Counted from the stretch's first letter, positions 25,561 to 63,103 are shown. The stretch: DNA of 64,000 nt from Candidatus Gottesmanbacteria bacterium UBA6580 (GCA_002433895.1 DJJA01000005.1:3883-67882), one strand, 5' to 3'. Program-made: numbers and translations. The notes: a model not told the origin generated them from the sequence alone.

Positions 25561-25660
25561 ATGACGTGTACAGCCAAACATTAAATGTGTGTGAGCCATA
25601 CGGGTCTGGAACCGTTTAGTCCCATAACCACTGTATTTTGAGTGTATCACTTCAAGGCTA

Positions 25661-25698
25661 AATGAGACAAATGAGACACTATAAAAAAGGAGTGTCTC
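25661..25698. repeat. tandem 9-bp direct repeat (aatgagaca ×2) overlapping an 8-bp perfect inverted repeat (gagacact-N10-agtgtctc) at the GC/AT composition break
   Basis: Read directly from the sequence. It sits where core-like composition changes to AT-rich island composition. Confidence 0.5.
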
Positions 25699-25778
25699 AA
25701 AGATAATGATGTAGTTTGATATAGTATTCTTCCAAGTTGGTACTCACGTCCTGTAAGGAATATACTTAAAGCTGATAT

Positions 25779-26423
25779 ATGGCAAAAAAGACACAGAATC
25801 TAAACTCAAGAAAACTGATCTATTTGTTCCTATTTATAGTAATCCTCGGGTTAGGTTCGCTTCTGTGGTACAGAAACTGGCAAAGTAAGTTTGAAGCTCC
25901 CAGACACAATACTCAAATGGTCGAGTTCACTATCAGTAAAGACAAGACTTTGGACACTGTCATTGGCGACCTTCAGTACTACGACTTCATTAAAGACAAA
26001 GAAGCATTCAGATATGCTTTGGAACACGCAAAAGATACGAACCCGGGCAAAGATAGTTCACTAAAGATTGGAAATAATACCATTGATCGAGAAGCGAGAT
26101 ACTCTATCTCCCAAAGTATGACTGCTTGGGAAATAGCTGATGTTTTAGTTAACAAAGGTGAATATAGTCCATGTAATCATGGATGTCCTGATAGCGCATT
26201 TAACCCAGAATTAGTACCCGGTGGAGATTTAGCTCCTACTTTGAAAGAAAAATACTCTTGGGTCAAAACTTACGAAGATTGTACAAAAGCCATTGGTCAC
26301 GACGGTGGTCAACTCTCGTCAGAACAGTATTACCAAAGGACTGGAATAAGACGATGTGTGGCTCCTGACGGACGAGAATTTACAGAGGGTAAAGAGGGCT
26401 GGTCAGATGTTCCTACTCCTTAA
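25779..26423 (+). CDS. hypothetical membrane-anchored protein
   Basis: 214-aa ORF with an N-terminal signal-anchor helix. It converges on, and overlaps by 4 nt, the last gene of the candidate defence operon. It is AT-rich. Confidence 0.35.
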   Translation: MAKKTQNLNSRKLIYLFLFIVILGLGSLLWYRNWQSKFEAPRHNTQMVEFTISKDKTLDTVIGDLQYYDFIKDKEAFRYALEHAKDTNPGKDSSLKIGNNTIDREARYSISQSMTAWEIADVLVNKGEYSPCNHGCPDSAFNPELVPGGDLAPTLKEKYSWVKTYEDCTKAIGHDGGQLSSEQYYQRTGIRRCVAPDGREFTEGKEGWSDVPTP

Positions 26424-27337
26424 AATTTAATTTTTTGAATCTGAGTGCCAATTTGCTTCCAGGCTTCACCAAATTTAAAGAAATTGTCTGGTAAAGAGTT
26501 TTTCGCATATGGATTGTGGACTATAACGAAGTTACTTCCTAATTTATCAGGTTCTCTTGAACTGTTTAAGATATCCCATGGACAGTAGATCACAGCACTT
26601 ATACCTTCGTAACTGGAATCTCTAAACATAAGCATTTCAACTTCACTGCCACTAACCTTATTGAGTTTATCTCTTAAAGTCCAAGTACTTCCTTCTGACA
26701 TTGAATGAGGTGTAGTTCTTTTTAGAAAAAGAACTTGATGACCGATGGCAAAAAGGCACTTAAGTATCAATGGTATCTGCGCATCCATATGTTCCAATGG
26801 CGATCTATCAATCGCTATAATATACGGGTCACTAGAATTAATATGGCCACTTTTTAAATACGATAAGTACTTTTGATGTTTTTCTTTTAATCCTGCCGTA
26901 AGGCGAAATAGCATTTCTTTCTCAGGGACGTCCATTGCTTTACCGTATTCAATTTCTGGAACCCTATCTTTTCCAGCACCTTTTTCTACCGCAATTGCTT
27001 CAATCCAGACAGTACAATTATTATGAAGGATTTTGAAATCAGGACCAGTATCTTTATGTGTCTGTAAGTTATGACCCCTATTTAGTAACGTCGCTCCAAT
27101 GTGTAGCTCCCATGATCGTTGGTTAAACTGCTTTTTAAATTCGTTTGGAAAATTTGAATCGGCGTACGGTTCATATTGTTTCCAAATAGACTCTAACCAA
27201 TTTCTGAATTCTGGACGAGTTGCCATCGTAGCAATGGCAACATACGTAGGGTGGTAGAAATTAAACTTTTTCTTTAGAGCTGCAAGTTGTTTGCTGTTGG
27301 AGGCAACTCCTAGATTTTCATTAAATAGTTTGGTCAT
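26420..27337 (-). CDS. hypothetical protein (component C of the candidate defence operon)
   Basis: 305 aa. Its start overlaps the stop of the 1,225-aa gene by 17 nt, suggesting translational coupling. No confident domain was found. Confidence 0.4.
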   Translation of the reverse strand: MTKLFNENLGVASNSKQLAALKKKFNFYHPTYVAIATMATRPEFRNWLESIWKQYEPYADSNFPNEFKKQFNQRSWELHIGATLLNRGHNLQTHKDTGPDFKILHNNCTVWIEAIAVEKGAGKDRVPEIEYGKAMDVPEKEMLFRLTAGLKEKHQKYLSYLKSGHINSSDPYIIAIDRSPLEHMDAQIPLILKCLFAIGHQVLFLKRTTPHSMSEGSTWTLRDKLNKVSGSEVEMLMFRDSSYEGISAVIYCPWDILNSSREPDKLGSNFVIVHNPYAKNSLPDNFFKFGEAWKQIGTQIQKIKF

Positions 27338-30300
27338 GATTGTTTTCTATCCATTTTTGCTTAACCTCGTAATATTTAGGGTTACGTCTAATCAAAGAGT
27401 CAAATAGATTGTTAATCTCGTCCTTGTGACCTCGTAAAGATACCAATCTTTCAACGGCTCGATCCAAATCATTAGCTATAAGTACAGGTGCTGGATAATC
27501 GGAAAGCTTACTAAAGTAGAACAAAAACTCATCAACACCTTTATGATCTAATACGGTTTCTAATATCATGCCGTTATAGAAAAATGGCCACCAGTATAAA
27601 TCATGGAGTTTATCTTCTGACCAATTTTCTTGGTAATATTTTGATTCTAAGTCAATACATTTAGTCCATAGTTCGTAACAAATTTCAAAGTGATCAGTAT
27701 GATATTCTTCTATAAAATGATAGATGTCATTAAACACATCATGGTCATATTTAGTCAGAAGCATCGTCATATACTTTGACGATAATTTGATGGCGTCTTC
27801 TAAAGTAATAGCTCCTTTTGTTTCGGAACTCTTCTTTATCTCATCAGGTAACCTTTCTAATTGCCAGGCTAATTGTGCTCGAACTTTAGGATTTCCATTT
27901 TTGAGTTGACTCTCTAGTAGGGATTGTATTTTGGTTTGATCAAATTCCTCAAGCGGTTTCCATTGCCATTTGGGGAAGGCGTTTTGTCTGAATAGAGAAT
28001 AATAGATAAAAAGAGGCAGTATCTCCGAAATTACATCTTCATTATCACTTTTTAAGAACATTTGAATAACCTGCAAAGCCTTATCTGTTCCCAGAGTGCG
28101 GATATATGTAAACACCATTGCTAAATGTTTCGCCACCTGATTTAAGCGGATATTCTCATCAGTAAGCATGTCAAAAGCAAGGCGCTCCATTTCTTCTGCC
28201 AATTCTTCTGACACAAAACGTTCATTTGTCTTCCCAGGCAGGTGTGTGTGTCTGTTTTTAACAAGTTCAATCAGAGGTATACAGCCCTCGGCCCGCACAT
28301 AAAAATTTGAATCGAAACAAAGTATCTTTACCAACCTTAAACACTCAGGAATAATTTCTCTTGCGACTAATTGATCGGCTTCACTAAACGGAACTACTAG
28401 TTTTTGTAATGTCCATGCACAATATCCTCTTACTGTTGCCAATTCGGAAACATCATCACCTGAAGAGACTCTCTTGTGTAAATTAGATTCTCCCTTTGGA
28501 TCATCGGATGTGTTTGAACCATCCTTTGGGGGGTCGCTGTCTAAGATAAATATTTTTGTCATCCATAAGGCATCCTTTTTGTGACCGGCTTTGGCTAGTT
28601 TTTCAGCAAATTGAATTAGTGATTCTCTCGCATATCGATAACTAAATCTTTCTTCTATTGGACTGAAATCCTCTTCAGTTAACAAGTCCACTTGTTTCAC
28701 TTTCTTACCAATCAGATTCGAAAGAAGAGGCTTAACAAAGTTTTCAAAAACAAGCTTGAGAAGCTCTGGATTGTTATCATTTGTTTTGTATAGGCTACTA
28801 CATATAAGAATTTGCTGATTCGTGGTCAAATTAGCTTCTTGATTTACAGCATTTAGCAACGCTAAACCCCTATCAAAATTCTCCTCTAGCACACGGGAAA
28901 GTACTCCAGCAACATCATAGGCATCAAAAGTATCTCGCTTGGCTTTAAAATGATCGCTTTGAATATATGACTCAATTAAATCAATACCTTCAGACTTTGA
29001 CTTAGGATTGTTAATTAATTTCAGTGCACTATCAACAGTGTCCAACTCTCCGTAACTATGGCGTTTCTGATACTCAGGGTTGGATGCCCAGCTCTTTAAA
29101 ATCTCAACTGCGTTTTGACGAATTTCTTGATTGTCACTCTTCGCTGCTAAGTCTGAAACTATTTGTTCAACGAAAACATTGACAGGTAGATCACTAAAAG
29201 CTTTCAAACTGACACTTACAAGCTCCCACTTTTGTTCATCACTATAGCTATCGCTGTTTAGCGACTGAAATATTAAATCGTTTTTCCAGGGTATTCCTTT
29301 TCGCATTTTAATAAAGTCGCTTAATATTTCTCTTGCTTCATTAGAATGACTGCCTCCTTTATATTCCTCCAACAAGATTGGAAGTGAAGCTCGGTTAAGA
29401 AAATCAGGTTTTTGTCTTGTAACATCTTCCGTTTGTCGAGCGATGCAGTTTGAAATTACAAACGACCAGCCAACTTCTTTGTCTTTATATAGTTCTTGAA
29501 GTGCGGGAGTTAATATTTTTACGACAAAATGCTTATCTATAATCGAGAATTCATTCCCAGACTGGCCTATTCCTCCTCCCATGTGTTCCCAACCATCAAA
29601 GCTAATCTTCTTATTGAACCTACGGTAATACTTTTGATATTGATTAGAACATTTATCTTTTAACTCAAGTATCCTCTCAGCTGGATTTGCAATTACAAAA
29701 TCAGCTAAAATCTCGAACAGGCTTGGTGGGGTATAATGCCAAAATTTACCGTCGTCTTCTACGATATTAAAATTGCCTAAAATATAATTAACAATTTCTA
29801 CCTTAAGTTGTTGGACTGAACTTTGTTGGTAAATCTCTTTTAAGAACTTTGAGATTTCCTCGCGCTCCCACGAGCTTTCATCCTTTCTTTCAGAGTACAA
29901 GAATTTTTCAATGCGATATGCATATAGACTCTTCAGGATTCTAAATATTCTTTCAGCATATCTATGGTTTTTTTGGAATATATGTTGGCATAGATCGACA
30001 ATATCTTTTTTAATAAATTCTTCCCTATAATAATTAGCTTCATAGTTTTCAATCGCATTTTCGATGAGAGATAACGAATACTCTTGATTTTCTTGTTGAT
30101 CAATATTTTTTTCTAAAACTTTGAACAACTCTAAAGAAAAAGCACCTCTCAATGTGGCTTTCCATAGTGCATCCCAATCAGCTAACTTCAAATTCTCAAC
30201 GCTTTGTAACTTTTGCAGAACAAAATAATGAACAGATGGATTTACTGGCAAGCGGGCTATCTCATTATTAGCCCTATCTCTTCGGGAGTTGTTTTTTAAG

Positions 30301-30998
30301 TTTTTTATTATTTCCTCAACTCTACTTGTTGTAGTTTCTTTCTCTTCTTCGTACTTGTAGCCTGAATCGTCAAAAAATTGGACTTTCTTGTTATTAATTT
30401 TCTCCAAAATTTCCGATCGGGTCACAATCTTACCCTTCTGAGATCCATGATAAATATCATCAACTAATAATTTCTTTGTCCATTCGTTAAGTTGATGCGA
30501 TGGTAGCCAAAAATTTCCACCAATATTTAACACTTGAGCCATCAAAACAAGTATTCCCTTGTCATTTATCTCTTGAGGAACCTCCCAAATCTTTAATCGC
30601 GGGAGGAGTGATATATGCTCATCAGTAAATTTATGTACACTGTTTTTTAATTCTTTTTGTAACCTACCACCAAAATACTTAAAATTCTCAACTGCTCCCT
30701 TAACATCAGGATTAATCTGCTCAGTAATTATTAGTATTTCGTCATTTTTGGAAATTTGTTTATGTTTAGAAATAGTTTCTAAAATCTCACGAATATTATG
30801 CCACTCCAATGGAACGCTCCTATATTTGGATTCACAAATTATCCTTTTCTCATCAAAAACAAGAACAAAATCTTCAAGCTTAGACTGTTCAAGCTCAATC
30901 TGTTTAAAATCGGGTCGGGTGAGATATTGTAAAAACAACGATAGCCCAGCTGCCGCTTGTGCGTTTATTCCTTTAAATGTTGATTTTCCTGATGACAT
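27321..30998 (-). CDS. giant protein (component B): PD-(D/E)xK nuclease-like (Cap4/DUF4297-like) N-domain plus a roughly 1,000-aa HEAT-like repeat array
   Basis: 1,225-aa uninterrupted ORF. The N-terminus (KGINAQAAAGLSLFLQYL … EDFVLVF … ICESKY) is paralogous to the upstream 289-aa protein. The C-terminal two thirds hold repeated xxVRxxAxxxLxxL-type HEAT signatures (NFYVRAEGCIPLIELV, NPKVRAQLAWQLERL, ATVRGYCAWTLQKLV). No Walker A motif is present. Confidence 0.5.
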   Translation of the reverse strand: MSSGKSTFKGINAQAAAGLSLFLQYLTRPDFKQIELEQSKLEDFVLVFDEKRIICESKYRSVPLEWHNIREILETISKHKQISKNDEILIITEQINPDVKGAVENFKYFGGRLQKELKNSVHKFTDEHISLLPRLKIWEVPQEINDKGILVLMAQVLNIGGNFWLPSHQLNEWTKKLLVDDIYHGSQKGKIVTRSEILEKINNKKVQFFDDSGYKYEEEKETTTSRVEEIIKNLKNNSRRDRANNEIARLPVNPSVHYFVLQKLQSVENLKLADWDALWKATLRGAFSLELFKVLEKNIDQQENQEYSLSLIENAIENYEANYYREEFIKKDIVDLCQHIFQKNHRYAERIFRILKSLYAYRIEKFLYSERKDESSWEREEISKFLKEIYQQSSVQQLKVEIVNYILGNFNIVEDDGKFWHYTPPSLFEILADFVIANPAERILELKDKCSNQYQKYYRRFNKKISFDGWEHMGGGIGQSGNEFSIIDKHFVVKILTPALQELYKDKEVGWSFVISNCIARQTEDVTRQKPDFLNRASLPILLEEYKGGSHSNEAREILSDFIKMRKGIPWKNDLIFQSLNSDSYSDEQKWELVSVSLKAFSDLPVNVFVEQIVSDLAAKSDNQEIRQNAVEILKSWASNPEYQKRHSYGELDTVDSALKLINNPKSKSEGIDLIESYIQSDHFKAKRDTFDAYDVAGVLSRVLEENFDRGLALLNAVNQEANLTTNQQILICSSLYKTNDNNPELLKLVFENFVKPLLSNLIGKKVKQVDLLTEEDFSPIEERFSYRYARESLIQFAEKLAKAGHKKDALWMTKIFILDSDPPKDGSNTSDDPKGESNLHKRVSSGDDVSELATVRGYCAWTLQKLVVPFSEADQLVAREIIPECLRLVKILCFDSNFYVRAEGCIPLIELVKNRHTHLPGKTNERFVSEELAEEMERLAFDMLTDENIRLNQVAKHLAMVFTYIRTLGTDKALQVIQMFLKSDNEDVISEILPLFIYYSLFRQNAFPKWQWKPLEEFDQTKIQSLLESQLKNGNPKVRAQLAWQLERLPDEIKKSSETKGAITLEDAIKLSSKYMTMLLTKYDHDVFNDIYHFIEEYHTDHFEICYELWTKCIDLESKYYQENWSEDKLHDLYWWPFFYNGMILETVLDHKGVDEFLFYFSKLSDYPAPVLIANDLDRAVERLVSLRGHKDEINNLFDSLIRRNPKYYEVKQKWIENNHDQTI

Positions 30999-31000
30999 AT

Positions 31001-31867
31001 TTATTCTGTTAAACTTCTATTTGCTATTGGTAAAGTTGGCTGACGAGTCCACCATTGATTGAACTTAGATTGAACAACCGTTTTGATTTCACCTTTTTTC
31101 TGCTCTACTGCCGTAGGCCTCGGGTAATGCTCACTAAATAACTTTCGCATAGTAATATATTCGATAAGCGAGTCCTGGATTATAGGAACAACATCCTCCC
31201 CACTGCCTGACATCCTAACTAGGTGATATAAAAGATTGTGAAATAGAATTTCCTTGGGATATTCATAGTTGGTGGAGTCTGCTCCAAGTTCACTGATTAA
31301 ACTTTCAATTTCCTCTAAAATTAACCCCTCCAGCTGAGGATCATCTGGAGACTGAAGCGTATTACAATCTGCCGGAAGATCTTCGATCTTAATTTGGGAG
31401 CAAAAAACATGAACACTTCTCTGGTCGGGGAATACTTCTTCTTCATGATTTAGTTTATCCATTAACCATTGAGCTGAATTATGTGCTCTATCTGAATTTA
31501 GTATTTTGTACCTTCGTAGAATCGTCAAATGGCTCCAGTATTCCGAAATTGTAGGCAGGTATCCATGATTCATATATAAGTGTAGCTTAACTGTGGGAAA
31601 CGAAATACCATAAGTATGCAAATCAAGCATTGAACTGGCGATTTCCACCTCATCATCCTTAAACGTTTCACCAGTTTTAATCTCATAGACTTTTTCTTCA
31701 CCGCCAACCCTTGTTAGCAATCGGATATCCAATGATTTTTGGTCAGCTAGAGGATAATCGACGAAAAATGAAGTAAGATTTCTGGACCTAAAGTGTTTCA
31801 AAAACAAATATAATGCAACCTTATCTTGGTAATGGAATCCTTTTCTGGTAGCAAATATTGTTGACAT
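31001..31867 (-). CDS. PD-(D/E)xK nuclease-like (Cap4/DUF4297-like) protein (component A)
   Basis: 289 aa from the ATG at 31867. The N-terminus (RKGFHYQDKVALYLFLKHF … LDIRLL … EEKVYEIKTGE) carries D-(hydrophobic)n … E-x-K motifs and matches the N-terminus of the 1,225-aa protein. Its stop lies 2 nt from the start of the next gene. Confidence 0.45.
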   Translation of the reverse strand: MSTIFATRKGFHYQDKVALYLFLKHFRSRNLTSFFVDYPLADQKSLDIRLLTRVGGEEKVYEIKTGETFKDDEVEIASSMLDLHTYGISFPTVKLHLYMNHGYLPTISEYWSHLTILRRYKILNSDRAHNSAQWLMDKLNHEEEVFPDQRSVHVFCSQIKIEDLPADCNTLQSPDDPQLEGLILEEIESLISELGADSTNYEYPKEILFHNLLYHLVRMSGSGEDVVPIIQDSLIEYITMRKLFSEHYPRPTAVEQKKGEIKTVVQSKFNQWWTRQPTLPIANRSLTE

Positions 31868-31868: not shown

Positions 31869-32051
31869 TTATCGATTGAGTAGCTTAAGAACTTCTTCTT
31901 TATTGTATTTTCTATCCTTACGTGCCCCAAACCTCACGGCCTTGAGAATACCCTTCTTGTCCCACTGCCTCAGGGTATTGGGGTGAACTTTGAGGAGCTC
32001 ACAGGTCTCCTTCATTGTCAGTAGTTCTGGTAATTGCGTGTCTTTTTTCAT
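31869..32051 (-). CDS. AlpA/excisionase-family HTH DNA-binding protein
   Basis: 60 aa (…LLTMKETCELLKVHPNTLRQWDKKGILKAVRFG…), an HTH_17-type prophage regulator. Its stop lies 1 nt from the start of component A. Confidence 0.6.
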   Translation of the reverse strand: MKKDTQLPELLTMKETCELLKVHPNTLRQWDKKGILKAVRFGARKDRKYNKEEVLKLLNR

Positions 32052-32108
32052 TGTCTAATAACCTACCATTTGATACTATTACCATACTAGAAATACCTTA
32101 AATTTACA

Positions 32109-32942
32109 ATGGAAGACAAATATATCCTTACTAGCAAAAACTTTGAAGACTGGCGAAACTATTTATTGGTTAATAGCTTCTTTTTTGATGTGTTGATGAG
32201 AATAATACGACGTGATCTTGGTCTTCCAGAGAATGGCATAAAAGATCTAGAGGAAATGATTCGCTGGGACGGAGAAAGGAAAGATCAAGTTAGACGAAAA
32301 ATTACCCCCACCTCAAAGCGTAAAAAGACCGGAGTTCAAACGGTCAAAGAAATATTTGCCATTGAGGATGAGGTGAGGCGAAAAGCATACCCACAAATCT
32401 GGGAAGCTATCGAAAAGTTTGCTGATTTTAACTTAGACTTTTCACTACTCCACACCTTTGTCTTGGGTAATACAAGAATATCGTTTGGTGGAAGCTCGAG
32501 GGTTTTAATGGTTACATCCCCAAATGATCCAATTCAAGAAACTGGTGTATATATCAAATATTCTCCCGAGCTAAGCGAAAAAGACATCATTGCATTAATC
32601 AAACAAGCACGTGAGTCGTACGAGTCGTTGTTTAAATACAGACACCCATCCGAAAGGACACATGATGAAAATGGTAAGCCGTATATCAAACGTCCGAAGC
32701 TAAAAGTTCGCCAAAGGAAAGTGTCCCAACCAACCAAAGAACAGCTAAAAATTTTCGAGTCAGTAGAAAATTGTCTAAAAGAAGATTATTCCTCCAGAAC
32801 CGATTCGATAAAAATGCAAGTTGTTTTTGAACTGGTTGCCACCAAATTAAAGAAAAATATGAACTCGGTTCAGCGAACATACCACGCCATTTTGAGAAAC
32901 TACAATTTACCTACAAGTGTCGATACCCGCAATATTTTCTAA
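32109..32942 (+). CDS. hypothetical protein (phage-associated)
   Basis: 277-aa basic protein divergently transcribed from the HTH gene. No motif recognised. Confidence 0.3.
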   Translation: MEDKYILTSKNFEDWRNYLLVNSFFFDVLMRIIRRDLGLPENGIKDLEEMIRWDGERKDQVRRKITPTSKRKKTGVQTVKEIFAIEDEVRRKAYPQIWEAIEKFADFNLDFSLLHTFVLGNTRISFGGSSRVLMVTSPNDPIQETGVYIKYSPELSEKDIIALIKQARESYESLFKYRHPSERTHDENGKPYIKRPKLKVRQRKVSQPTKEQLKIFESVENCLKEDYSSRTDSIKMQVVFELVATKLKKNMNSVQRTYHAILRNYNLPTSVDTRNIF

Positions 32943-33009
32943 CTAATGCGGTGTTAGCCTGAAAAGTCATCTGATTTTTAATTCTTAGATTGTTTGGAAA
33001 AATATAGAT

Positions 33010-34344
33010 ATGTCAAAAGTATCTATACAAACAGTTGAAGTTCCAATCAATGAATTGGTTCCAGCAGACTACAACCCACGAAAACACGATGAGACTGCTA
33101 CTGAGCAACTGAAACAAAGCATTCAACGATTTGGGTTGGTTGATCCAATAATCGTAAACTCCGCCCCGAGTCGTAAAAATATTATCATCGGTGGGCACTT
33201 TCGCTGGGAAGCAGCCAAGGAATTAGGGTTTGAGACTGTCCCCGTGGTCTTTGTTGATATTCCAGATTTAGATAAAGAAAAGGAGCTCAATCTCCGCCTC
33301 AACAAAAACACAGGAGAGTTTGATTGGAATCTTCTCGCAAAATTTGATGAATCGTTACTCTCCGAGATTGGTTTCTCTAGCGACGAACTCGATTCTATTT
33401 TTGATCTTGATATCGAACCAGAGAAATTCGATCTGGAAAAAGAACTACAAAAGCTGAACATCCAGAGTATAAACACCAAAAAAGGAGATATCTATGCTTT
33501 GGGTAATAGTCGTCTGATGTGTGGCGACTCCACAGTTGAAGAAAACATATTAGCTCTCATGAATGGGGAGAAAGCGAATATGTGTTTTACTGACCCACCC
33601 TACATCCTCGACTACTTACATGGGAAGAAAAAACATGGAAGTGCAGTAACAGGCTTTGGGGCAAAACGTGACCGCAGATACTTGGAAACAGATGTTCTAC
33701 CGCCCGACTTTACTGAAAAATGGATGAGTAATATTGCCAAAATCCAAAATGAAAGTTTCAGCATCATTGTTTATGAAAATTGGAAGAACCTTCGCACAAT
33801 TTGGGGTGAGATGGAGAAGCATTGGAAGGTCAAAAACATGATTGTTTGGCACTTGCCCAATCGCCATCAAGGGTTTTCCGCCAAGTATAAATTCTTTTCA
33901 AAACATGACATTGCTATGGTTGGGGCAAGCCCAGACAAAGATGTTGAGTTCAACATGGAGCCAGAAGCAGACGGTCTTCAAGAGGAGTACGAAACCGCTC
34001 TATATGCCATTTCCGGCAAGCCACAATGGGAAGGTTATCAAAAAGGCAAGAAAAACCAACCAACTGATCATATCGAGTATGTAGCGTCCGACGAAAAACA
34101 TTCTGGTCAAGGAATTATCTTTGGTACAAAACCAATTGAAATCCTTATTCCTTACATCAAAGTCCTAACTAAACGCGGTGACCTAATAGTTGAACCTTTC
34201 TCAGGTAGTGGAAGCACGTTAATTGCGTCAACCAAAATGAAACGCAGGTGTTACGGAATGGAAAAGTCTCCCGTTTATGCGGAAGTCATCATTAAACGTT
34301 GGGAAAAGATAACGGGACAGAAAGCAAAGAAAATATATGGATAA
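33010..34344 (+). CDS. ParB-like nuclease domain / DNA (N6-adenine or N4-cytosine) methyltransferase fusion
   Basis: N-terminal ParB/Srx-like region (…LVPADYNPRKHDE…GLVDPIIVN…GGHFRWEAAKELG…), then MTase motif IV DPPY (CFTDPPY) and motif I (FSGSGST). This is an architecture typical of phages. Confidence 0.75.
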   Translation: MSKVSIQTVEVPINELVPADYNPRKHDETATEQLKQSIQRFGLVDPIIVNSAPSRKNIIIGGHFRWEAAKELGFETVPVVFVDIPDLDKEKELNLRLNKNTGEFDWNLLAKFDESLLSEIGFSSDELDSIFDLDIEPEKFDLEKELQKLNIQSINTKKGDIYALGNSRLMCGDSTVEENILALMNGEKANMCFTDPPYILDYLHGKKKHGSAVTGFGAKRDRRYLETDVLPPDFTEKWMSNIAKIQNESFSIIVYENWKNLRTIWGEMEKHWKVKNMIVWHLPNRHQGFSAKYKFFSKHDIAMVGASPDKDVEFNMEPEADGLQEEYETALYAISGKPQWEGYQKGKKNQPTDHIEYVASDEKHSGQGIIFGTKPIEILIPYIKVLTKRGDLIVEPFSGSGSTLIASTKMKRRCYGMEKSPVYAEVIIKRWEKITGQKAKKIYG

Positions 34345-34756
34345 CACAATTGAAAAACGCCAAATCAAAAACAAAGAATTATTGTTGGAGCAACTCAAAA
34401 AGACTCCAGTGGTTCAGATTGCCTGTGAGAAAGCAGGAGTCGGCAGAGCTACTTACTATCGCTGGCGTAAGGAAGATCCAGAATTTACTAAAGCTAGTGA
34501 CCAGGCATTGCTAGATGGCAACCTCCTTGTGAATGATATGGCTGAAAGCCAAATGATGAGCGCTATCAAAGATAAAAATATGACGGCTATTATTTTTTGG
34601 CTCAAGCACCATCACCCAGCCTATGCTACCAAAATAGAAATCACTGCCACAAATAAGAACCAGGATATCGAACTCAGCGATGAACAAAAAGCGTTATTAA
34701 ACAAAGCCTTAGAAATGGTGGCATTGATGCCGCCAGAAAACGAAAACCATGAATGA
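34337..34756 (+). CDS. terminase small subunit-like HTH protein
   Basis: 139 aa with an N-terminal HTH (…VVQIACEKAGVGRATYYRWRKEDPEFTK…). It overlaps both the MTase gene and the large-terminase gene. Confidence 0.45.
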   Translation: MDNTIEKRQIKNKELLLEQLKKTPVVQIACEKAGVGRATYYRWRKEDPEFTKASDQALLDGNLLVNDMAESQMMSAIKDKNMTAIIFWLKHHHPAYATKIEITATNKNQDIELSDEQKALLNKALEMVALMPPENENHE

Positions 34757-36281: not shown

Positions 36282-36524
36282 TTATTTGAAGAACTCGTCA
36301 GCCGAGACTTTCAAGGCTTTAGCGAGTTTGTGGATATTATCCACCGACACGTTTTGCTCAGCCCTCTCAATCGAACCGATATAAGTTCTATGGAGGTTGG
36401 CTCTAAAGCCTAATTCCTCCTGAGACAGCCCAGCCTTCTTTCTTAAGGCTCTTAGCCTCTTGCCAAACTGCTTTCTTGTAGGAGTTATTGACATAGTACA
36501 CAAAGCGTATCTAAATGATGTCAA
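36282..36524 (-). CDS. XRE-family HTH transcriptional regulator
   Basis: 80 aa with a classic Cro/C1 HTH (…LRALRKKAGLSQEELGFRANLHRTYIGSIERAEQNVSVDNIHKLAKAL…). Confidence 0.7.
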   Translation of the reverse strand: MTSFRYALCTMSITPTRKQFGKRLRALRKKAGLSQEELGFRANLHRTYIGSIERAEQNVSVDNIHKLAKALKVSADEFFK

Positions 36525-36600
36525 TAGCTCTACAGTCGATAACTAGCATTTCATGGCTAAAAGCGGTATTATTCAGTTAAAGAAAGGAGGTGAGAAATTA

Positions 36601-37569: not shown

Positions 37570-37573
37570 ACTT

Positions 37574-54038: not shown

Positions 54039-55922
54039 ATGAAAAGAATATTGTCTTATCTAAAAAATCCAAAAGTAGCAACCTCATCAGTCAGCTGGTT
54101 GGTATTTCTCATTACGTTCTTTTTAGGATTATTCGGTGTTGGACAAGCCGTCATAATTCCCCTCTATGTATCAGGCATTCTTATCGGTGGATTTTATTTC
54201 GGACGGGAAGCAATTGAAAAGTTATTTGAGAAAAAAATTGGTATCGAAATCCTGATGTCTGTTGGAATTATTGGGGCGGCAGCTCTGGGAGAGTGGAAGG
54301 AGGCATTGCTTCTGGTTGGGCTTTACTCTATTTCTGAAGCAATCGAAAGTTTCATTTCCGACAAGACCAGAAGTGCCATTCGTGCTTTGATGGATTTAGT
54401 ACCGAAAAAAGCGTTGGTCAAAGAAAATGGCAAAACAGAATATATTTTGGCAGAGAAGCTCGAAGTAGACCAGATTTTTATTGTCAAAGCGGGCGAATCT
54501 ATTGCCACCGACGGAATTATCTACACGGGGAGTGCTTCTATCAATCAAGCTGCGATTACCGGAGAGTCTATTCCTGTGTTTAGAAAAGAAGGAGAAACCG
54601 TGTTTGCTGGGACGATAAACGAGGACGGATACATAGAAGTTAAAGCCACGAAGAAGTTTTCGGAAAATACCATCTCAAAAATTATCAAACTGGTTGAAGA
54701 TGCACAGGAGAGTAAAGGCAAAAGACAACAAATGGTTGAAAAATTTTCCTATACTTTTTCACCGATAGTGCTGGGTGTCTCTATTCTCATGCCGCCAGCA
54801 CTGATCCTTTTAGGGTTTCCTCTTTCTGACGCTTTCGTAAGAGCTGTAACATTTGTGGTAGCTGCCTCTCCCTGTGCTTTCGCGGTTTCCATCCCGGTTG
54901 CGTTTGCAGCAGCAATAGGCACTTCGGCAAAAAATGGAGTGTTGGTAAAAGGAGGGATTTATTTAGAAGAGCTCGCCGATACAAAAGTAGTAGCTTTTGA
55001 CAAGACAGGCACGCTCACCACCGGTAAGCCCGTGGTAACAAATATTCTTCCTTTTGGAAACCTTGGCAAAAAACAACTCCTAGAGACCGCAGGTGGTTTA
55101 GCTGTCAACTCATCACATCCGCTTAGTAAAGCAGTTCTATCGGAGTTATATCAGAATAATGTCAATCCGTCATCAGTTGCCAGCCATCACACAATGGCAG
55201 GTGAAGGAGTTAAAGGGGTGATCGATGGAGAAACAGTCTATCTTGGCAGTCCACATCTTTTTGAAAAGCTGGGACAGCGTATTTCGGATATCCGCGAATT
55301 TAAAACATTCTCAGCAGAAGGTAAAACGGTCATTTTTGTCGGCACGGAAAAGAAACTGTTAGGCCTAATCGCAATCGCCGATGCTCCGAGAACCGAAGCC
55401 AAAGCAGCTTTATTATCACTAAAGCGATTGGGTGTAGAAAATGTCATGCTCACGGGTGACCATACGTTGGTTGGAGAAAGCATCGGAAAAGAACTTGGAG
55501 TAGATAAAGTCATTGCCGAGCTGAAACCCGACCAGAAAGTAGAGCGAATTAAGGAACTGAAAAATAAATATCATCATGTGGCTATGATTGGTGATGGTAT
55601 TAATGATGCGCCGGCACTGGCCGAGTCGTCGGTTGGACTGGCAATGGGAACGGCCGGAACAGATGCGGCTCTTGAAGCTGCAAATGTTGCGATCATGGGC
55701 GATGATCTTACTAAAATTCCTTATGCTATCCAACTATCCCGTTATGCTAAAAAGATTGTTTTTCAGAATCTTTTTTTCTCGACAGTTTTACAGGTTATAG
55801 TAATGGGACTTGCAATCTTTATGGTTTTGCCAGTTAGTCTCATATTGTTCGTGGATGAGTTTGGAGAAGTTTTAGTAGTCTTGAATGGACTTCGTCTGCT
55901 ATCTGGGAAAATAAATAGCTGA
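54039..55922 (+). CDS. P1B-4-like (SPC-motif) heavy-metal ATPase without an N-terminal metal-binding domain
   Basis: ASPCAFAVSIP TM6 motif, TGES, DKTGTLT and [10 protein letters not shown], 627 aa. The TM8 region reads DEFGEVLVVLNGLRLL rather than the canonical HEGST…. Confidence 0.8.
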   Translation: MKRILSYLKNPKVATSSVSWLVFLITFFLGLFGVGQAVIIPLYVSGILIGGFYFGREAIEKLFEKKIGIEILMSVGIIGAAALGEWKEALLLVGLYSISEAIESFISDKTRSAIRALMDLVPKKALVKENGKTEYILAEKLEVDQIFIVKAGESIATDGIIYTGSASINQAAITGESIPVFRKEGETVFAGTINEDGYIEVKATKKFSENTISKIIKLVEDAQESKGKRQQMVEKFSYTFSPIVLGVSILMPPALILLGFPLSDAFVRAVTFVVAASPCAFAVSIPVAFAAAIGTSAKNGVLVKGGIYLEELADTKVVAFDKTGTLTTGKPVVTNILPFGNLGKKQLLETAGGLAVNSSHPLSKAVLSELYQNNVNPSSVASHHTMAGEGVKGVIDGETVYLGSPHLFEKLGQRISDIREFKTFSAEGKTVIFVGTEKKLLGLIAIADAPRTEAKAALLSLKRLGVENVMLTGDHTLVGESIGKELGVDKVIAELKPDQKVERIKELKNKYHHVAMIGDGINDAPALAESSVGLAMGTAGTDAALEAANVAIMGDDLTKIPYAIQLSRYAKKIVFQNLFFSTVLQVIVMGLAIFMVLPVSLILFVDEFGEVLVVLNGLRLLSGKINS

Positions 55923-57802: not shown

Positions 57803-57825
57803 CGAAAGGAATTATATGAACACAC

Positions 57826-58022
57826 AAACATTTACATTAACCGGCCTAACTTGCCCAGCCTGCAAAAAGATAACTGAAAAACGAATCGGTTCGCTTCCCG
57901 GAGTGACGCACGTCGAAGTGACAGTTTCGAATGGTTCTGCCCATGTGATGTCCGAGAGTCTTATTACAAACGTACAAATCAACGAGGTATTGAAGGATAC
58001 CCCGTATTTTATAGAAGGATAA
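57826..58022 (+). CDS. copZ: copper chaperone CopZ (HMA domain)
   Basis: 65 aa with [14 protein letters not shown]…GV, the MxCxxC-type HMA fold. RBS GAAAGGAAT upstream. The ORF track extends it upstream to 57720. Confidence 0.7.
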
Positions 58023-58026
58023 ACAT

Positions 58027-61000
58027 ATGAACAGAACAATAAATCTAGAAGTCAAAGGAATGCACTGTCAATCATGCGAGATGCTCATTAAGGATGAGTT
58101 GTCAGAGATTTCCGGTATTAAGGATATATCTATTGATGCCAAAACGGGTAAAGGATCGCTCGTCGCAACCAGTAGTAAGGTAACCGATGCTGCTATTATT
58201 GCAGCCATCAAAAACGCAGGTTACACTGGTGTCGTTTTCCCTACCACGAACGGCAATGGCCATTCATTATTGAGCCGTGAGGAATTTGACCAACACTCTG
58301 CCCCTGTATCGTTCACAATGCCACAAGAAGTTGAGATAGATGGCAAGATTGGCAAAAGTGACGACGGATTCTGGACAATTAAGGGAATCCTTCGCTTTGG
58401 AACACGAAATACTATTGTTGAAACGGTGGCGAATGCCATAGCTCCAGTAACAGTCGAAGCTGCAGGAAAATCTGGAGAGCGCACAAACTTGGTTATCCAG
58501 GGCATGCATTGCTCTTCCTGCGCAGCCATTATTGAACGACAATTGAAAAAAGTTCCGGGTGTTACGGATGCAAAAGTAAACTTTGCAGCTGAGAAAGCGT
58601 CAATTGTTCACGACTCGTCCATTGCAAAGATTACTGATCTAATCGCCGGAGTTGAGAAAGCCGGATACAGAGCAATTTCTGCTGATCAAGAAGATTCTAA
58701 AGCTCAGGCAGAACGCCAGCAAGGCGAGATTAAAGGTATGTGGCGGAAGTTTTTGGTCAGCTTAGTGCTGTCTTCCCCCATGATCTATTTCATGTTCATG
58801 GACTTTTTCGCGATGCCGTTTAAGGCGGTACTTTTACCATACATTGGAATCGTCTCACTTGTCTTATCAACTCCTGTCCAATTCTTTATTGGATCGAGTT
58901 TTTATAAAGGAATGATTTCTGCGCTGCGCATGAAGACGTTTAATATGGATAGTCTGATTGCCATCGGCACGTCGGTTGCGTATTTCTATAGTTTGGTCAA
59001 TTTCCTGACCTACAACGCACAAACCGGTTCTATCCTCGGATTGAACGGTGCCAAAATTCCTGAGCTCTACTTTGAGACTGCAGCGTTTCTTATTACCTTT
59101 GTTATTTTAGGTAAATTCCTGGAAGCAAAAGCAAAAGGAAGAACCAGCGAAGCGATCAAAAAACTGATGGGTTTGCAGGCAAAAACCGCGCGTGTCATAA
59201 GAAATGGTGAAACACTTGATATTCCGGTTGAGCAAGTCGTCAAAGATGACATTATCGTTGTCCGACCGGGTGAAAAAGTTCCTGTCGATGGCGTGATCGT
59301 CAAAGGTTCGTCCTCTGTTGATGAATCCATGATTACCGGAGAAAGTCTGCCAGTGGAGAAGCATGTTGATGACATGGTCATCGGTGGCACGATTAATAAA
59401 GTTGGTAGCTTTGAATTCATGGCTACCCGTATCGGTGGCGAGACAACCTTGGCACAGATCATCCGATTGGTTGAGGATGCCCAGGGTTCAAAAGCCCCGA
59501 TTCAGGCTGTTGCTGACCGAATCTCTGCTTATTTTGTGCCCGCAGTTATTATCGTTGCTTTACTCACCTTTGTAGTGTGGTATTTCCTTTTGGGAGCAAC
59601 GCTATCATTTGCACTCATGGCATTTACAGCCGTGATCGTTATTGCGTGTCCATGTGCCCTTGGCTTAGCCACTCCGACGGCCATTATGGTTGGTACGGGA
59701 GTTGGTGCCGAGCACGGTATTTTGGTCAAAGGCGGCGAGCCACTTGAGGCTGCCAGCAAGATTAATGCCATCGTATTTGATAAGACCGGCACGATTACCA
59801 AAGGGAAACCCGAGGTGACAGATGTAGAAGACTATGGCACGCTTGACGAAGACGACGTTCTTATGATCGCAGCCAGTCTTGAAAAACAGTCTGAGCACCC
59901 GCTTGCAGAAGCTATCTACTCCTATGCACAGGAGGAAGGTATCAAACTTGCCGAAGTCGATGGATTCTCCGCAATCCCCGGACACGGAGTCAAGGGAAAA
60001 GTCGGGAAAACCGAATATTATCTCGGGAACCGCAGACTTATAGCCGACAAACTTGGCCTTGATATTGGCCGGATTGAGCGAAAGCTTGCCAGACTTGAAG
60101 AACAAGGCAAAACCGCTATGATTCTCGCTTCCAAGAAGCAAGTGGAAGGTGTGGTCGCTGTTGCCGATACAGTCAAAGACACCTCGCGTGAAGCCGTAGA
60201 ACGCCTTAAGAAGATGGGTATCGAAGTCTGGATGATTACGGGTGACAATACCCGTACAGCCAAGGCTATTGCCGCCCAAGTCGGTATTGATAATGTCCTG
60301 GCAGAAGTCTTGCCTCAGGACAAAGCGAATGAAGTCAAGAAACTCCAGGATGCTGGCAAAAAGGTCGCCATGGTTGGCGATGGTATCAATGACGCACCAG
60401 CGCTTGCTCAGGCAGATTTAGGTATCGCCATGGGATCAGGCACTGATGTCGCTATGGAAACTGGTGGCATTGTCATTATCAAAAATGACCTTCGGGACGT
60501 TGTGCATGCACTGGAACTATCCAAGAGCACTGTGTCAAAGATCCAGCAGAATATGTTCTTTGCGCTCTTTTATAACGTCATCGGTATTCCGATTGCCGCA
60601 CGCATATTCAGCTTCATCGGCTTGGTCTTAAAGCCTGAGCTCGCTGGCCTTGCCATGGCCTTAAGTTCCGTCTCAGTTGTCGGCAACTCCCTCTTACTGA
60701 GGCAGTACAAACCCGGTAAGCGCAACTATGTGTCGCAGTTTGCCCCAGCCATAATGATGGTGGCGTTTACATTCCTATTCATAGAGTTTGCCCGGTTCAG
60801 TTCAACCATGGCAGCCAGTGAGAAGATGGATACAAAAGCGGCTGATGCAAACATTATGGTGGCAAAAACACCCGACGGCACTGAGAAGAAGTTCTTTGCC
60901 ATGGATAGAGAGCTACCGAAAGAACTTGCAGGTAAAATCCCTGCAGACGGCTTTGCCCCGGTCTATATTGGTGGAAAAAAATACTTGCCAGTCTATATTG

Positions 61001-61176
61001 GCTACGATGAAGCCAAGATCATGACCGATGAGAAACTCTTTACCAAAGAGGGTGATACCATTAAAGGCTTCTTTGGAAATGATGTGATCGTGTCCGGTAT
61101 CCTCCCCGATACCAATACGGCCTACGACACCTATCACTTCGTCAAACCTGGATTTGAAATCAAAAAGATGGACTGA
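58027..61176 (+). CDS. copA: copper-translocating P1B-1 ATPase with two N-terminal HMA domains and an extended C-terminus
   Basis: GMHCQSCE and [11 protein letters not shown] motifs, [31 protein letters not shown]. There is an extra hydrophobic segment plus a tail of about 130 aa after the last canonical TM helix. Length 1,049 aa. Confidence 0.9.
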
Positions 61177-61231: not shown

Positions 61232-61270
61232 GTATTCTTCTGCTAGACTTCCTCAAGACCCAGCGGTACC

Positions 61271-62626
61271 TTGTACCCTGAAATGAGTACAAAGTACAAC
61301 CAGAATTCAACGATAGAACCACCAAAAATAGAATACTGTCTCTATGCTCGCAAGTCGTCAGAGTCGGATGAACGACAGGCAATGTCCATCGATTCTCAGA
61401 TTGACGAGATGCTTACATTAGCGAAGCGAGATAATCTCAAAATTAAGGAGGTTAAAAAAGAAAGCCACTCGGCAAAGATGTCAGGTTCTCGGCCAGTATT
61501 TACTCAACTCCTCCAAGAAATACGCCAAAAGAAGTTCAATGGAATCTTGACTTGGGCACCAGATCGATTGAGCCGTAATGCTGGCGACTTGGGATCAGTA
61601 GTCGATCTCATGGATCAGGGGAAGTTGGTAAAGATACAAACTTACTCTCAGAGTTTTACAAACAGTCCAAACGAAAAATTCCTCTTAATGATTCTATGTT
61701 CACAGGCAAAGTTAGAAAATGACAACAAAGGATTAAATGTTCAGCGAGGTTTGCGAACGAAGTGTTCAATGGGATGGAGACCAAGCATTGCTCCCGTAGG
61801 ATATCTAAATCAAGCTGGTGATGGTCACAAGGACGAACTAATCATTCTCGACCCCGACAGAGCTTCATTTGTCACTCAAATGTTTGAAAGGGTGGCAAAT
61901 CAAGGTCATAGCGGTAGGGCGATTAAACATTGGCTAGACAGAATAGGATTTAAAACTAGGAATGACAAACCAATACCTTTGAGTAAGGTTTATTCAACAC
62001 TTAATAACCCATTCTATTATGGTGAATTTGAATTCCCTGTAGGCAGTGGAACTTGGTACCAAGGTAAACATACGCCACTCGTGACAAAAGAACTTTTCGA
62101 TAAAGTCCAAGCTGTTTTACAAACAGTCCCGAAAGGCTACAAGAACAAGATTTTTCCTTTCAAAAGTATTTTTAGATGTGGTGGGTGTGGAGGTGGAGTA
62201 ACCGCCGAAGAAAAGATCAGGAAACTAAAACATGGTGGATACACCAAACACACTTATTACCATTGTGGCAGATCATTAAATTATGAATGTGATGAGCCAT
62301 ACATTACCGAAAGCGATCTCATAAAACAATTAATCGTCAATATCGACAAAATCAAATTTAATAACGCTGGAGTGTCACGAAAAATCCAGGAAGATATCGA
62401 GAGATATCACCGTCTCAAGTCCCAAGTCCTACATCAGGAATTTTTAGATGGTCACTTGGGAGAATATGAAAGAATTCCTAAAAGCACAGCCGACAAAAAC
62501 GATATGACAAAAAACTATCTCCTCCATATCCTCCAAGTGGGGACGGCTGAGGAGCGACAAGAGGCACTCACTTTCATCAAAACGAAGTTTATTCTGACAA
62601 ATAAAACGATAGTTATCCAGAAATAA
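61271..62626 (+). CDS. large serine recombinase (integrase)
   Basis: N-terminal resolvase catalytic domain (…CLYARKSSESDERQAMSIDSQ…), a recombinase domain, and a zinc-ribbon (…CGGCGGGV…YYHCGRS…). Length 451 aa. It sits next to a tRNA. Confidence 0.8.
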   Translation: MYPEMSTKYNQNSTIEPPKIEYCLYARKSSESDERQAMSIDSQIDEMLTLAKRDNLKIKEVKKESHSAKMSGSRPVFTQLLQEIRQKKFNGILTWAPDRLSRNAGDLGSVVDLMDQGKLVKIQTYSQSFTNSPNEKFLLMILCSQAKLENDNKGLNVQRGLRTKCSMGWRPSIAPVGYLNQAGDGHKDELIILDPDRASFVTQMFERVANQGHSGRAIKHWLDRIGFKTRNDKPIPLSKVYSTLNNPFYYGEFEFPVGSGTWYQGKHTPLVTKELFDKVQAVLQTVPKGYKNKIFPFKSIFRCGGCGGGVTAEEKIRKLKHGGYTKHTYYHCGRSLNYECDEPYITESDLIKQLIVNIDKIKFNNAGVSRKIQEDIERYHRLKSQVLHQEFLDGHLGEYERIPKSTADKNDMTKNYLLHILQVGTAEERQEALTFIKTKFILTNKTIVIQK

Positions 62627-62803
62627 CGACATCTACAGGCGTGGGTGTTCTTCTCGTGGTCTTAAAACGGAGTGTCCCATTGGGGTTAATCCCTCTATTA
62701 CAGGATCTAAAACTCGATTTCGAACAAATCGAAGAAAAATTAGCAGGTGTTATCGGTCTTTTTTGAGCAGGCGAACGGGTCGCGCTGAACCTTACGATAC
62801 TTG

Positions 62804-62875
62804 TGAGCCCGCTGGGATTCGAACCCAGAACCAATAGCTTAAAAGGCTACTGCTCTACCGTTGAGCTACAGGCCC
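62804..62875 (-). tRNA. tRNA-Lys (anticodon UUU)
   Basis: 72-nt cloverleaf folded by hand: acceptor GGGCCUG/CGGGCUC (two G·U pairs), D-arm GCUC-AACGGUA-GAGC, anticodon stem GUAGC/GCUAU with loop CUUUUAA, T-arm CUGGG-UUCGAAU-CCCAG, discriminator A. No CCA is encoded. Confidence 0.75.
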
Positions 62876-63103
62876 GTGTATCAATTCGTTAATATACTTC
62901 TTACTCTTGTATGACTTTATTTGTTTTTCTCTGTTTCTCGCTTCAAGTTCAGTCGTGTATTCTTCAGTGTAAACCAATTCTTTAGTTCCTAACAATCGTG
63001 TTGTTCTGGTATTTCCGCTATTATGTTGTAGTAATCTTCTTTTTAGGTTAATGGTTGATCCAATATAAAAGCGATCTGTTGATCTATTCCATAGAATATA
63101 CAA
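62855..63103 (-). CDS. GIY-YIG nuclease family protein
   Basis: 82 aa with a GIY-YIG module (MYILWNRSTDRFYIGSTINLKRRLLQHN). AT-rich. Its last roughly 7 codons overlap the 5' end of the tRNA-Lys. Confidence 0.55.
   Translation of the reverse strand: MYILWNRSTDRFYIGSTINLKRRLLQHNSGNTRTTRLLGTKELVYTEEYTTELEARNREKQIKSYKSKKYINELIHGPVAQR

Follow-up and report, generated by a model that had tools for sequence, protein, structure and literature searches.

Large serine recombinases (LSRs) of prophages, such as SprA of SPbeta and the integrases of TP901-1, Bxb1 and phiC31, integrate unidirectionally at a very short core, and the known ones target protein-coding genes or intergenic sites. According to Islander in 2015 (PMC4383910), no serine integrase was known to target a tRNA gene, and the word tRNA appears nowhere in the main text of a large LSR survey (PMC10083194). 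The ssrA islands of Dehalococcoides, with the LSR DsiB, use the 3' part of a tRNA-like gene (McMurdie et al. 2011, PMC3146451). Here we analyse 64,000 nucleotides from Candidatus Gottesmanbacteria bacterium UBA6580 (GCA_002433895.1, DJJA01000005.1:3883-67882), called the window throughout, which form part of a 119-kb contig from JGI metagenome 3300005673. Organism names, here and for all relatives, are those written on the records of metagenome-assembled genomes (MAGs). The window contains a low-GC island at the 3' end of a tRNA-Lys(UUU) gene, with an LSR gene next to the tRNA. We consider that positions 25590-62809 are very probably an integrated mobile island, likely placed there by its own LSR and made of a conserved backbone with two cargo slots.

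Junctions of the island and its empty sites

An initial annotation, made from the sequence of the window, had proposed a low-GC island at 25650-63103. The contrast in composition was borne out: GC is 0.411 in 25651-63103, against 0.493 in 1-25650 and 0.526 in 63104-64000, and a 1-kb profile confirms the low-GC stretch, with every interval between 26 and 51 kb at or below 0.44 and every interval of the left flank at or above 0.447. The boundaries had to be moved. The island begins at 25590 and ends at 62801, or at 62809 with the second repeat copy, and measures 37,212 bp when one repeat copy is counted. The right boundary first given, 63103, overshoots by about 300 bp, taking in the host tRNA and an unrelated GIY-YIG insert.

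Relatives were found by searching metagenome contigs with the nth protein, and the DNA between tRNA-Lys(UUU) and nth was compared. The nearest named genome by this protein is 'Candidatus Gottesmanbacteria' UBA5942 (90%), and the nearest nth relatives lie in MAGs of the candidate phyla radiation (CPR)/Microgenomates. In the window the two genes lie 37.5 kb apart. The distance is 45 bp in L039 (nth 80% identical), which represents an empty site, and 1.1 kb in L040/L005 (78%), while L038 (a 1.17-Mb contig) and L002 (both 90%) carry 4.9 kb of different low-GC DNA with no recombinase. This comparison had been suggested as a way of telling an insertion from an ancestral region; as the related genomes lack the island genes at the locus, insertion is favoured. 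Moreover, one and the same L038 locus matches the window in gene order on both flanks (DNA identity 81.5% for nth/deoC and 79% for the patatin gene), which rules out a chimeric assembly.

Although the att sites had been judged unreadable by eye, an 8-bp direct repeat, TGTGAGCC, marks both ends of the island, at 25590-25597 and 62802-62809 on the plus strand. It occurs on the plus strand of the window at these two places only, about one occurrence being expected by chance. The right copy is the reverse complement of the tRNA 3' end GGCTCA plus CA and reads GGCTCACA on the tRNA strand; the left one is a copy of this tRNA 3' end at the distal boundary. The left flanks of the window, of L038 and of a further contig, L152 (Logan SRR2135036_22186, 1-7337), retrieved through its exact match to the TerL protein of the island, are mutually unrelated, and all three join a conserved block exactly at TGTGAGCC. 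On the opposite side, the homology of the window to L038 and L039 passes through the tRNA and ends directly after ...GGGCTCACAA. Three left flanks joining at the 8-mer, and the same 8-mer at the tRNA junction, mean that the island is bounded by an 8-bp direct repeat. This repeat, and the 10-bp one of a mini-island in L038, are shorter than typical tyrosine-integrase island repeats, and no long direct or inverted repeats were found at the island ends. The target gene, tRNA-Lys(UUU) at 62803-62875 on the minus strand (ARAGORN; Rfam 73.4 bits), is intact and belongs to the host DNA. It is the only tRNA found in the window by ARAGORN and Rfam alike; its alignment columns show zero differences between the window and L038, and 62797-62881 as a whole is 97.6% identical to L038.

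The left terminus is a non-coding block of about 170 bp (25590-25759), conserved in L038/L002 and L152. It is 88.7% identical to L038/L002 over 25585-25759 and 93% over 25585-25730, the neighbouring nth/deoC being at 81.5%, and 97% identical to L152 over 25590-25721; the DNA on either side is unrelated in each comparison. The block lies at 8796-8972 in L038 and at 1607-1738 in L152. A diverged version at 20790-20990 of L119, an unrelated CPR genome (CP129472.1), follows eight small open reading frames (ORFs) of unknown nature and is 5 kb downstream of a tRNA-Gln. Its status as a terminus is read from three contigs (window, L038/L002 and L152), the far ends of the sister islands lying beyond the 10-kb flanks. 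A tandem and inverted repeat at 25661-25698 (AAATGAGAC AAATGAGACAC..GTGTCTC) had been noticed and placed at the left composition break; the repeat is real, but it lies inside the terminal block, whose outer end is at 25590. The block might serve as a promoter, as an att arm or as a small RNA. It had no Rfam match at the gathering threshold nor at E up to 10, and no match in IMG/VR. When the single sequence was folded, the z-scores of the two strands were -2.0 and -0.4. In a three-copy RNAalifold alignment a plausible helix appears (CATTTAGCC / GG.CTAAACG) with only 1-2 compensatory pairs, and an RNA call was not made, this being too little covariation. We also considered the block as a displaced tRNA fragment and set the idea aside: of 27 positions compared between its outer end and the tRNA 3' end, 17 agree, but eight other sites of the window score equally, and such a kinship beyond the shared 8-mer is at most suggestive.

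At the right end, a conserved terminal arm (62627-62801, plus strand; alignment A3) separates the recombinase gene from the tRNA. At a distance of about 23-25 nt from the core, the motif GGGT is present in the arm as well as in the tRNA half; it is presumably the sort of outer motif read by LSR zinc-ribbon domains. When ACGGGTC..GAACC was searched in the sister islands, only arms and blocks were matched, and no far ends.

The locus of L038 is of interest in itself. Between its tRNA and its copy of the block (5099-8972) lies a 3.9-kb mini-island without recombinase, of GC 0.37 against 0.465 for the host and flanked by the 10-bp repeat GGCTCACAAA. Its genes encode a 201-aa ORF, a Fur/Zur-like regulator, a ZIP transporter, a thioredoxin-DsbD protein and a 107-aa membrane protein.

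A serine recombinase family linked to tRNA genes

The LSR gene occupies 61271-62626 on the plus strand; the ORF has 451 aa, and gene callers start it at 61283, which gives 447 aa. The initial annotation had recognised here a 451-aa serine recombinase with a resolvase domain and a zinc-ribbon, adjoining tRNA-Lys, and our analysis agrees. Three domains score above the Pfam curated cut-offs (Resolvase, E = 6e-20; Recombinase PF07508, E = 3e-14; Zn_ribbon_recom PF13408, E = 1e-6), the protein matches PHROGs integrase with E = 3e-60, and the gene lies tail to tail with tRNA-Lys(UUU), its stop codon 176 bp from the tRNA 3' end. Residues 25-404 align to the SPbeta integrase SprA, the best solved-structure match, including the YxRxS active-site motif (YARKS vs YLRRS). 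The sole recombinase of the island is of the serine family; the island contains no tyrosine integrase, the usual type for tRNA targets, and no second serine recombinase.

More than 8000 homologues of this LSR were found. Among the best 120, identities range from 61 to 96% and lengths from 430 to 447 aa, and the few with a source name are labelled Shapiro-, Levy-, Roizmanbacteria or Patescibacteria. The genomic context was inspected for nine independent islands, the window included, with LSRs 52-100% identical, and a tRNA gene lies tail to tail with the LSR in all nine. The target is tRNA-Lys(UUU) in the window and Lys-CUU in L124, Glu-CUC in five islands (L118, L119, L121, L122 and L148), Glu-UUC in L142 and Gln-UUG in L127, the most distant member (LSR 52% identical). 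From the LSR stop codon to the tRNA 3' end there are 174-191 bp in seven of the nine islands; a gene is inserted in between in L148, and the gap is 94 bp in L127.

The right arm belongs to the same association. An nhmmer profile of it finds one copy per island in eight of the nine islands (those with LSRs at least 67% identical), always abutting the tRNA, with no second copy and no other match in about 2 Mb of fetched DNA, L127 included. The arm remains beside the tRNA despite a gene inserted after the LSR, namely a KAP NTPase in L148 and a 249-aa ORF in L138. The junction of the eight arm-bearing islands reads GTGA(C/G)(C/G)CC, preceded by A or T, and from this shared sequence it follows that the targeted Lys and Glu tRNAs are almost alike at the acceptor end. 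The junction of L127 with tRNA-Gln has another sequence. In other relatives about 50% identical (L130-L133 and L139-L141) no tRNA was found adjacent to the LSR.

We infer that this LSR made the junctions described above. Lying at the tRNA-proximal end, it would put the island at the 3' end of tRNA-Lys(UUU) by a crossover within or next to TGTGAGCC, that is, the last six bases of the tRNA plus CA. The tRNA would stay intact, and the 8-mer would be repeated at the far end of the island. LSR att sites are about 40-50 bp long, with imperfect dyad symmetry around a 2-bp crossover; the enzymes join attP and attB in integration and require a directionality factor for excision. The 447-aa enzyme likely recombines an attP composed of arm, core and block with an attB composed of the tRNA acceptor/T-arm end and the downstream DNA. 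The predicted attP junction is ...GAACCTTACGATACT-TGTGAGCC-ATACGGGTCTGGAACC..., and the predicted restored attB is ...ATTAAATGTG-TGTGAGCC-CGCTGGGATTCGAACC....

Conserved backbone, exchangeable cargo and neighbouring DNA

The cargo had been described as modular, with a candidate defence operon, a phage or satellite-like module and a large copper/heavy-metal resistance region. Pfam, PHROGs and PADLOC matches indicate that all three modules are present. The phage or satellite-like module recurs across the family as its conserved backbone and is not an accident of one island. The left-to-right order of the element is block, slot 1 (headed by an HTH_17 gene), a 277-aa ORF, a ParB-N6/N4 methyltransferase, a small terminase-like protein (TerS), a large terminase subunit (TerL), an XRE regulator, slot 2, LSR, arm and tRNA.

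The backbone ORFs are all full length. The 277-aa ORF (32109-32942, plus strand) has no family match and is found in all island copies, L152 included. It is followed on the same strand by a fusion of ParB_N with an N6/N4 DNA methyltransferase (33010-34344; Pfam N6_N4_Mtase E = 3e-21, ParB_N E = 2e-14), with 73-81% amino acid identity in sister islands, and by the TerS-like helix-turn-helix protein (34337-34756), which matches the small terminase subunit of PHROGs with E = 3e-9 and shares 62-85% identity with its counterparts in sister islands. The full-length TerL (34749-36281, plus strand) matches PHROGs phrog_38 with E = 1.7e-81 over residues 17-472 of 510. Next comes, on the minus strand, an XRE-type (HTH_3) repressor-like regulator (36282-36494, limits taken from L150; Pfam HTH_3 E = 3e-15), the best candidate for a maintenance repressor. 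A 60-aa HTH_17 protein of MerR/excisionase type (31869-32051, minus strand; Pfam HTH_17, PHROGs excisionase E = 5e-9, PADLOC mad1 E = 4e-9) heads the slot-1 cassette; its gene is annotated also in the sister islands L118, L119 and L121 and its DNA is kept in L152. It is the best candidate for a recombination directionality factor or regulator.

The backbone recurs in L118-L123, L127-L133, L142 and L148. The order ParB-methyltransferase, TerS, TerL, (XRE), LSR is also present in L127 (in a minimal form of 5.5 kb), L128, the 16.5-kb uncultivated viral genome 3300014656_005724, L130-L133 and L142. About half of the family members examined, the window island included, have a full TerL; L118, L119, L122 and L148 keep the ParB-methyltransferase and the TerS-like protein and have a 263-292-aa ORF in the place of TerL. 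Two tandem TerL paralogues, 44-49% identical to that of the window, lie between TerS and LSR in L130 (594-3752), L131 (2405-5564) and L132 (3809-6938), in hosts of GC about 0.52 and with no adjacent tRNA. No portal or capsid gene was found in any family member carrying the ParB-methyltransferase/TerS/TerL/LSR order. The ORFs of the window island have no Pfam or PHROGs match to capsid, portal, tail or lysis genes and no primase, helicase or replication-initiator domain by the same two collections, nor any Pfam match to a relaxase, a type IV coupling protein or secretion genes. The gene set (LSR, XRE, HTH_17, TerS and TerL with no virion module) resembles that of phage-inducible chromosomal islands (PICIs).

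Slot 1 would be a defence operon, a reading supported by its position and by one solid match. This match is a 305-aa gene (26420-27337, minus strand) resembling PD-T7-5 (PADLOC E = 9e-22) and PD-T7-1 (E = 1e-13). On the same strand are a 1225-aa protein (27321-30998), with sub-threshold HEAT/ARM matches only and no PADLOC match, and a 288-aa protein (31001-31867, limits as in L001/L150) with a weak LmuA-like match in PADLOC (E = 7e-5) and none in Pfam. A 214-aa membrane-anchored ORF (25779-26423, plus strand) has a weak Pfam YceG match (E = 6e-4, below the curated cut-off) and no PHROGs or PADLOC match, and is missing from the L152 variant. The same slot holds in sister islands a type I restriction-modification system with SduA_C (Shedu-type), HamA with a helicase (Hachiman-like), SMODS/DUF6602 (CBASS-like) and an AAA_13 protein. 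In L152, the space between block and HTH_17 is filled by three genes, for proteins of 328 aa (Mrr_cat), 283 aa and 1173 aa, and no homology was detected between this cassette and that of the window. Downstream, L152 differs from the window by about 15% over 31891-34890 and by only 9 mismatches in 11.4 kb over 34891-46281. As L152 differs in slot 1 yet is nearly identical from TerL on, slot 1 was exchanged recently. The three genes of L152 make up a second candidate defence cassette, and a further feature of this contig, its 578-aa LSR gene, suggests tandem islands at the same tRNA.

Slot 2 starts with a DUF4352 lipoprotein-like ORF (36553-37155, plus strand; Pfam DUF4352 E = 2e-20), a gene also found in L147 beside a recombinase 96% identical to that of the window. 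There, NUDIX and methyltransferase genes precede the recombinase instead of the metal genes. In the window the rest of the slot is 23.6 kb of copper/heavy-metal resistance cargo (37574-61176; Pfam, and gene calls in L150 and L157), and L124 has a related metal set in the same slot. The Pfam assignments include three P1B-type ATPases (51434-53668, 54039-55922 and 58027-61176); in their sequences, the transmembrane motifs read CPD, SPC and CPC. Also assigned are a CusRS-like two-component system (40892-42975) and, both on the minus strand, a two-domain multicopper oxidase (44038-45087) and a CopY/BlaI-like repressor accompanied by a BlaR-like protease (47146-48517). A 68-aa CopZ-like HMA protein (57816-58022, plus strand) is called in public contigs; in a list of longest ORFs it was masked by a spurious 75-aa ORF on the minus strand (57812-58039). 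Further metal cargo comprises two ArsR regulators, DsbA, an HMA-DsbD_2-cupredoxin protein and DUF305, YtkA and DUF3105 proteins.

Some details of this region may bear on its regulation and history. An exact 22-nt repeat, AATCTTAACGATTTCTTCATAC, occurs at 42968-42989 and 49826-49847. Each copy closely precedes one of two small DUF2933-like membrane ORFs (42993-43241 and 49869-50105), which are paralogues, and the repeat may be a shared operator or promoter of the metal region. A 39-aa stand-alone HMBD mini-gene (43447-43566, minus strand) repeats, in inverted orientation and with 71% complementarity, the part of the 744-aa ATPase gene that encodes the N-terminal metal-binding domain (51434-51517; inverted repeat I1). 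The response regulator of the island (within 40892-42975) is 70% identical, and the histidine kinase 44%, to chromosomal genes of related Microgenomates (L005/L040, 1-1667), which hints at recruitment of some of the metal cargo within the CPR.

Around the island, the left flank carries housekeeping genes, namely gatCAB-like genes, dnaE, the ATP synthase operon, CTP synthase, rplS, fbp, deoC and nth. The last of these ends 260 bp from the island, and the space that separates them contains a gene for a small secreted cysteine-rich protein with pacifastin/VWC-like matches (E = 1e-11) at 25333-25560 (ORF listed as 25333-25650, minus strand). It is missing from L038 and L039, its domain is unusual for a bacterium, and it forms another variable piece of the locus. 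Beyond the tRNA on the right is a patatin gene, of which 227 aa are readable in the window, against 279 aa in the L038 homologue, so that the ORF probably runs past the window end. The GIY-YIG insertion, 291 bp of GC 0.35 (62882-63172), lies outside the island, with the patatin gene on one side and the tRNA-Lys 5' end on the other. Its 82-aa ORF (62855-63103, minus strand; Pfam GIY-YIG E = 3e-13) overlaps the tRNA by about 20 nt. The insertion is missing from the closest relative, L038, and looks like a separate small mobile element.

Mobility, alternative origins and relation to known islands

The present state of the element can be read from public contigs. The exact TerL is found on 18 contigs and the exact 1049-aa ATPase on 20, from at least nine wastewater or bioreactor-sludge data sets. 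In all ten of the listed places the same LSR comes after the ATPase, the others having been collapsed as having mostly the same neighbouring genes. Where the contigs extend far enough, the LSR is followed by the tRNA gap, patatin and Ca-ATPase. Two contigs break inside the tRNA at 62830, as expected when co-occurring relatives share the tRNA but not the island. The element is stably integrated and looks fixed in its population.

Several of our results weigh against a mobile island driven by its own LSR. As 20 contigs from at least nine samples show one and the same host context, the element may no longer be mobile. Neither an excised nor a circular form was found in contigs, IMG/VR or the fetched loci, no empty site was seen in the same species, and the predicted attP junction had no match in IMG/VR nor in all 165 fetched loci. 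The similarity of left block and right arm is not above that of shuffled controls, and the dyad expected of an LSR attP is weak. The terminal block is retained in L038 without any recombinase. In L152 a 578-aa LSR gene, whose product is 23% identical to the 451-aa LSR, runs straight into the block, and the left junction could therefore stem from another recombinase or an earlier island. Finally, no replication module, portal or capsid gene, pac site, helper phage or directionality factor was identified for the element, and the transfer mechanism is conjecture. For L152 we also tried a circular form in which the 578-aa LSR replaces the 451-aa one, and rejected it as the simplest reading, all 20 ATPase contigs continuing into the 447-aa LSR and the tRNA.

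The findings on L152 and L038 would fit a composite of at least two islands accreted in tandem at the tRNA. In such a case the left block and its TGTGAGCC junction would be a relic of an older element, possibly of the 578-aa LSR type, and the element with the 451-aa LSR would have come later or replaced the interior. The 10-bp repeat that L038 keeps, together with the block, around its 3.9-kb recombinase-less remnant points the same way, as do the uneven GC within the island (0.36-0.45), the DNA between block and nth, which differs between the window and L038 and gives the locus a layered look, and the tandem arrays known for Dehalococcoides ssrA islands (PMC3146451). However, the island has only one recombinase gene and one arm, no internal TGTGAGCC on the plus strand and no internal tRNA fragment, and its block-to-backbone arrangement is kept in two island variants; we therefore regard a composite origin as rather unlikely. 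Still less likely is a decayed prophage fixed in the chromosome, with leftover terminase genes and an inactive or domesticated recombinase. It would account for the lack of structural and lysis genes among the island ORFs, the identical host context in at least nine samples and the absence of an excised form from our searches. Yet the capsid-less order of ParB-methyltransferase, TerS, TerL and LSR is found in at least 10 elements, in hosts of GC 0.35-0.52, and random decay would not repeat itself in this way. Every backbone ORF is full length, the cargo differs between recombinases 96% identical, and slot 1 has been exchanged recently.

An ancestral region deleted in the relatives, or a chimera of metagenome assembly, could be suspected, as the window is a metagenome contig and its relatives differ by indels at the locus. 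Both are effectively refuted: island GC is 8 points below that of the flanks, the integrase family, accompanied by a conserved arm of its own, occurs at further tRNAs of other genomes, the same junctions are present in independent assemblies from many samples, and both flanks match one L038 locus. We thus favour an integrated mobile island with its own LSR. The cargo of its two slots would be exchanged by recombination between related islands. As for its spread, the TerS/TerL genes are kept and virion genes never are, which makes satellite packaging the most economical model of transfer. The terminase of the island would package the excised island DNA into helper-phage proheads, in a satellite-like lifestyle, and 37 kb is the size of a phage genome. 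It is tempting to propose this route, which we hold to be possible but somewhat doubtful.

CPR genomes are about 1 Mb in size, and little is known about their gene gain or phage resistance. In this wastewater/bioreactor population, one element adds about 3% to a genome of about 1 Mb, bringing three metal-pumping ATPases, a multicopper oxidase, regulators and anti-phage genes. We tentatively hypothesize, giving the idea a little less than an even chance, that the island belongs to a very large and so far undescribed CPR/Microgenomates family, with integration at tRNA-Lys/-Glu 3' ends in the closest clade (tRNA-Gln in L127), members that are terminase-bearing satellites of unknown CPR phages, two cargo slots, and a role as main route of gene gain in minimal genomes. 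If so, the defence slot could be mined for new anti-phage systems. Being fixed by position, it allows unknown cassettes to be nominated as such, the candidates here being the 305/1225/288-aa trio of the window and the 328/283/1173-aa trio of L152. Each member would also offer a compact integrase of about 447 aa with a tRNA-end attB pair for engineering, in organisms so far not engineerable. Our literature search, of incomplete coverage, found no description of a CPR family of LSR/tRNA elements; the TIGER database may contain such islands.

Among known systems, the Dehalococcoides ssrA islands (PMC3146451) are the closest analogue, although the island is not a member of them. In both, the LSR stands at the end proximal to the target, the target is a tRNA-like gene, used at its 3' part, and the far boundary is marked by a short direct repeat that copies the target 3' end; low GC and adaptive cargo are also shared. 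A ParB-domain protein and a DNA-modification gene are present in the integration module of both (ParB and Mom in Dehalococcoides), and tandem or recombinase-less remnants are found at the same site. In contrast, the ssrA islands target the tmRNA gene (ssrA) with a 20-bp repeat, whereas here the targets are tRNA-Lys, -Glu and -Gln and the repeat has 8-10 bp. DsiB has about 540 aa, is CcrB-like and is paired with a small serine recombinase, DsiA; the island has a single LSR of about 447 aa and no RecF or Mom. TerS and TerL are features of the CPR family unlike the ssrA islands, and the hosts are Chloroflexota in one case and CPR in the other.

The tycheposons of Prochlorococcus (Hackl et al., bioRxiv 10.1101/2020.12.28.424599) resemble the island in their integration at tRNA sites, in streamlined genomes, and in a modular backbone with exchangeable adaptive cargo. 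An LSR is present in 27 of 937 tycheposons, and some relatives are PICI-like and carry a small terminase. They differ in relying overwhelmingly on tyrosine recombinases, in the replication modules (primase, helicase) of many of them, and in having no TerL/ParB-methylase backbone; PICI-like tycheposons have never been seen with cargo, while here a terminase backbone and a large cargo share one element. PICIs and other phage satellites have, like the island, an integrase, an XRE-type repressor, an excisionase-like helix-turn-helix protein, a small terminase, no capsid genes and defence cargo. Classical PICIs, however, use tyrosine integrases, contain a primase/replication module, measure about 10-15 kb and have no TerL unless they make their own capsids; for the island, dependence on a helper is a conjecture. 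The prophage serine integrases share with the LSR of the island the three-domain architecture and the catalytic motif, but not the target. The family described here uses serine integrases systematically at tRNA genes, a target called unknown for the serine family in 2015. In summary, the element is a tRNA-integrated genomic island, but one with a dedicated LSR clade and a terminase/ParB-methylase backbone.

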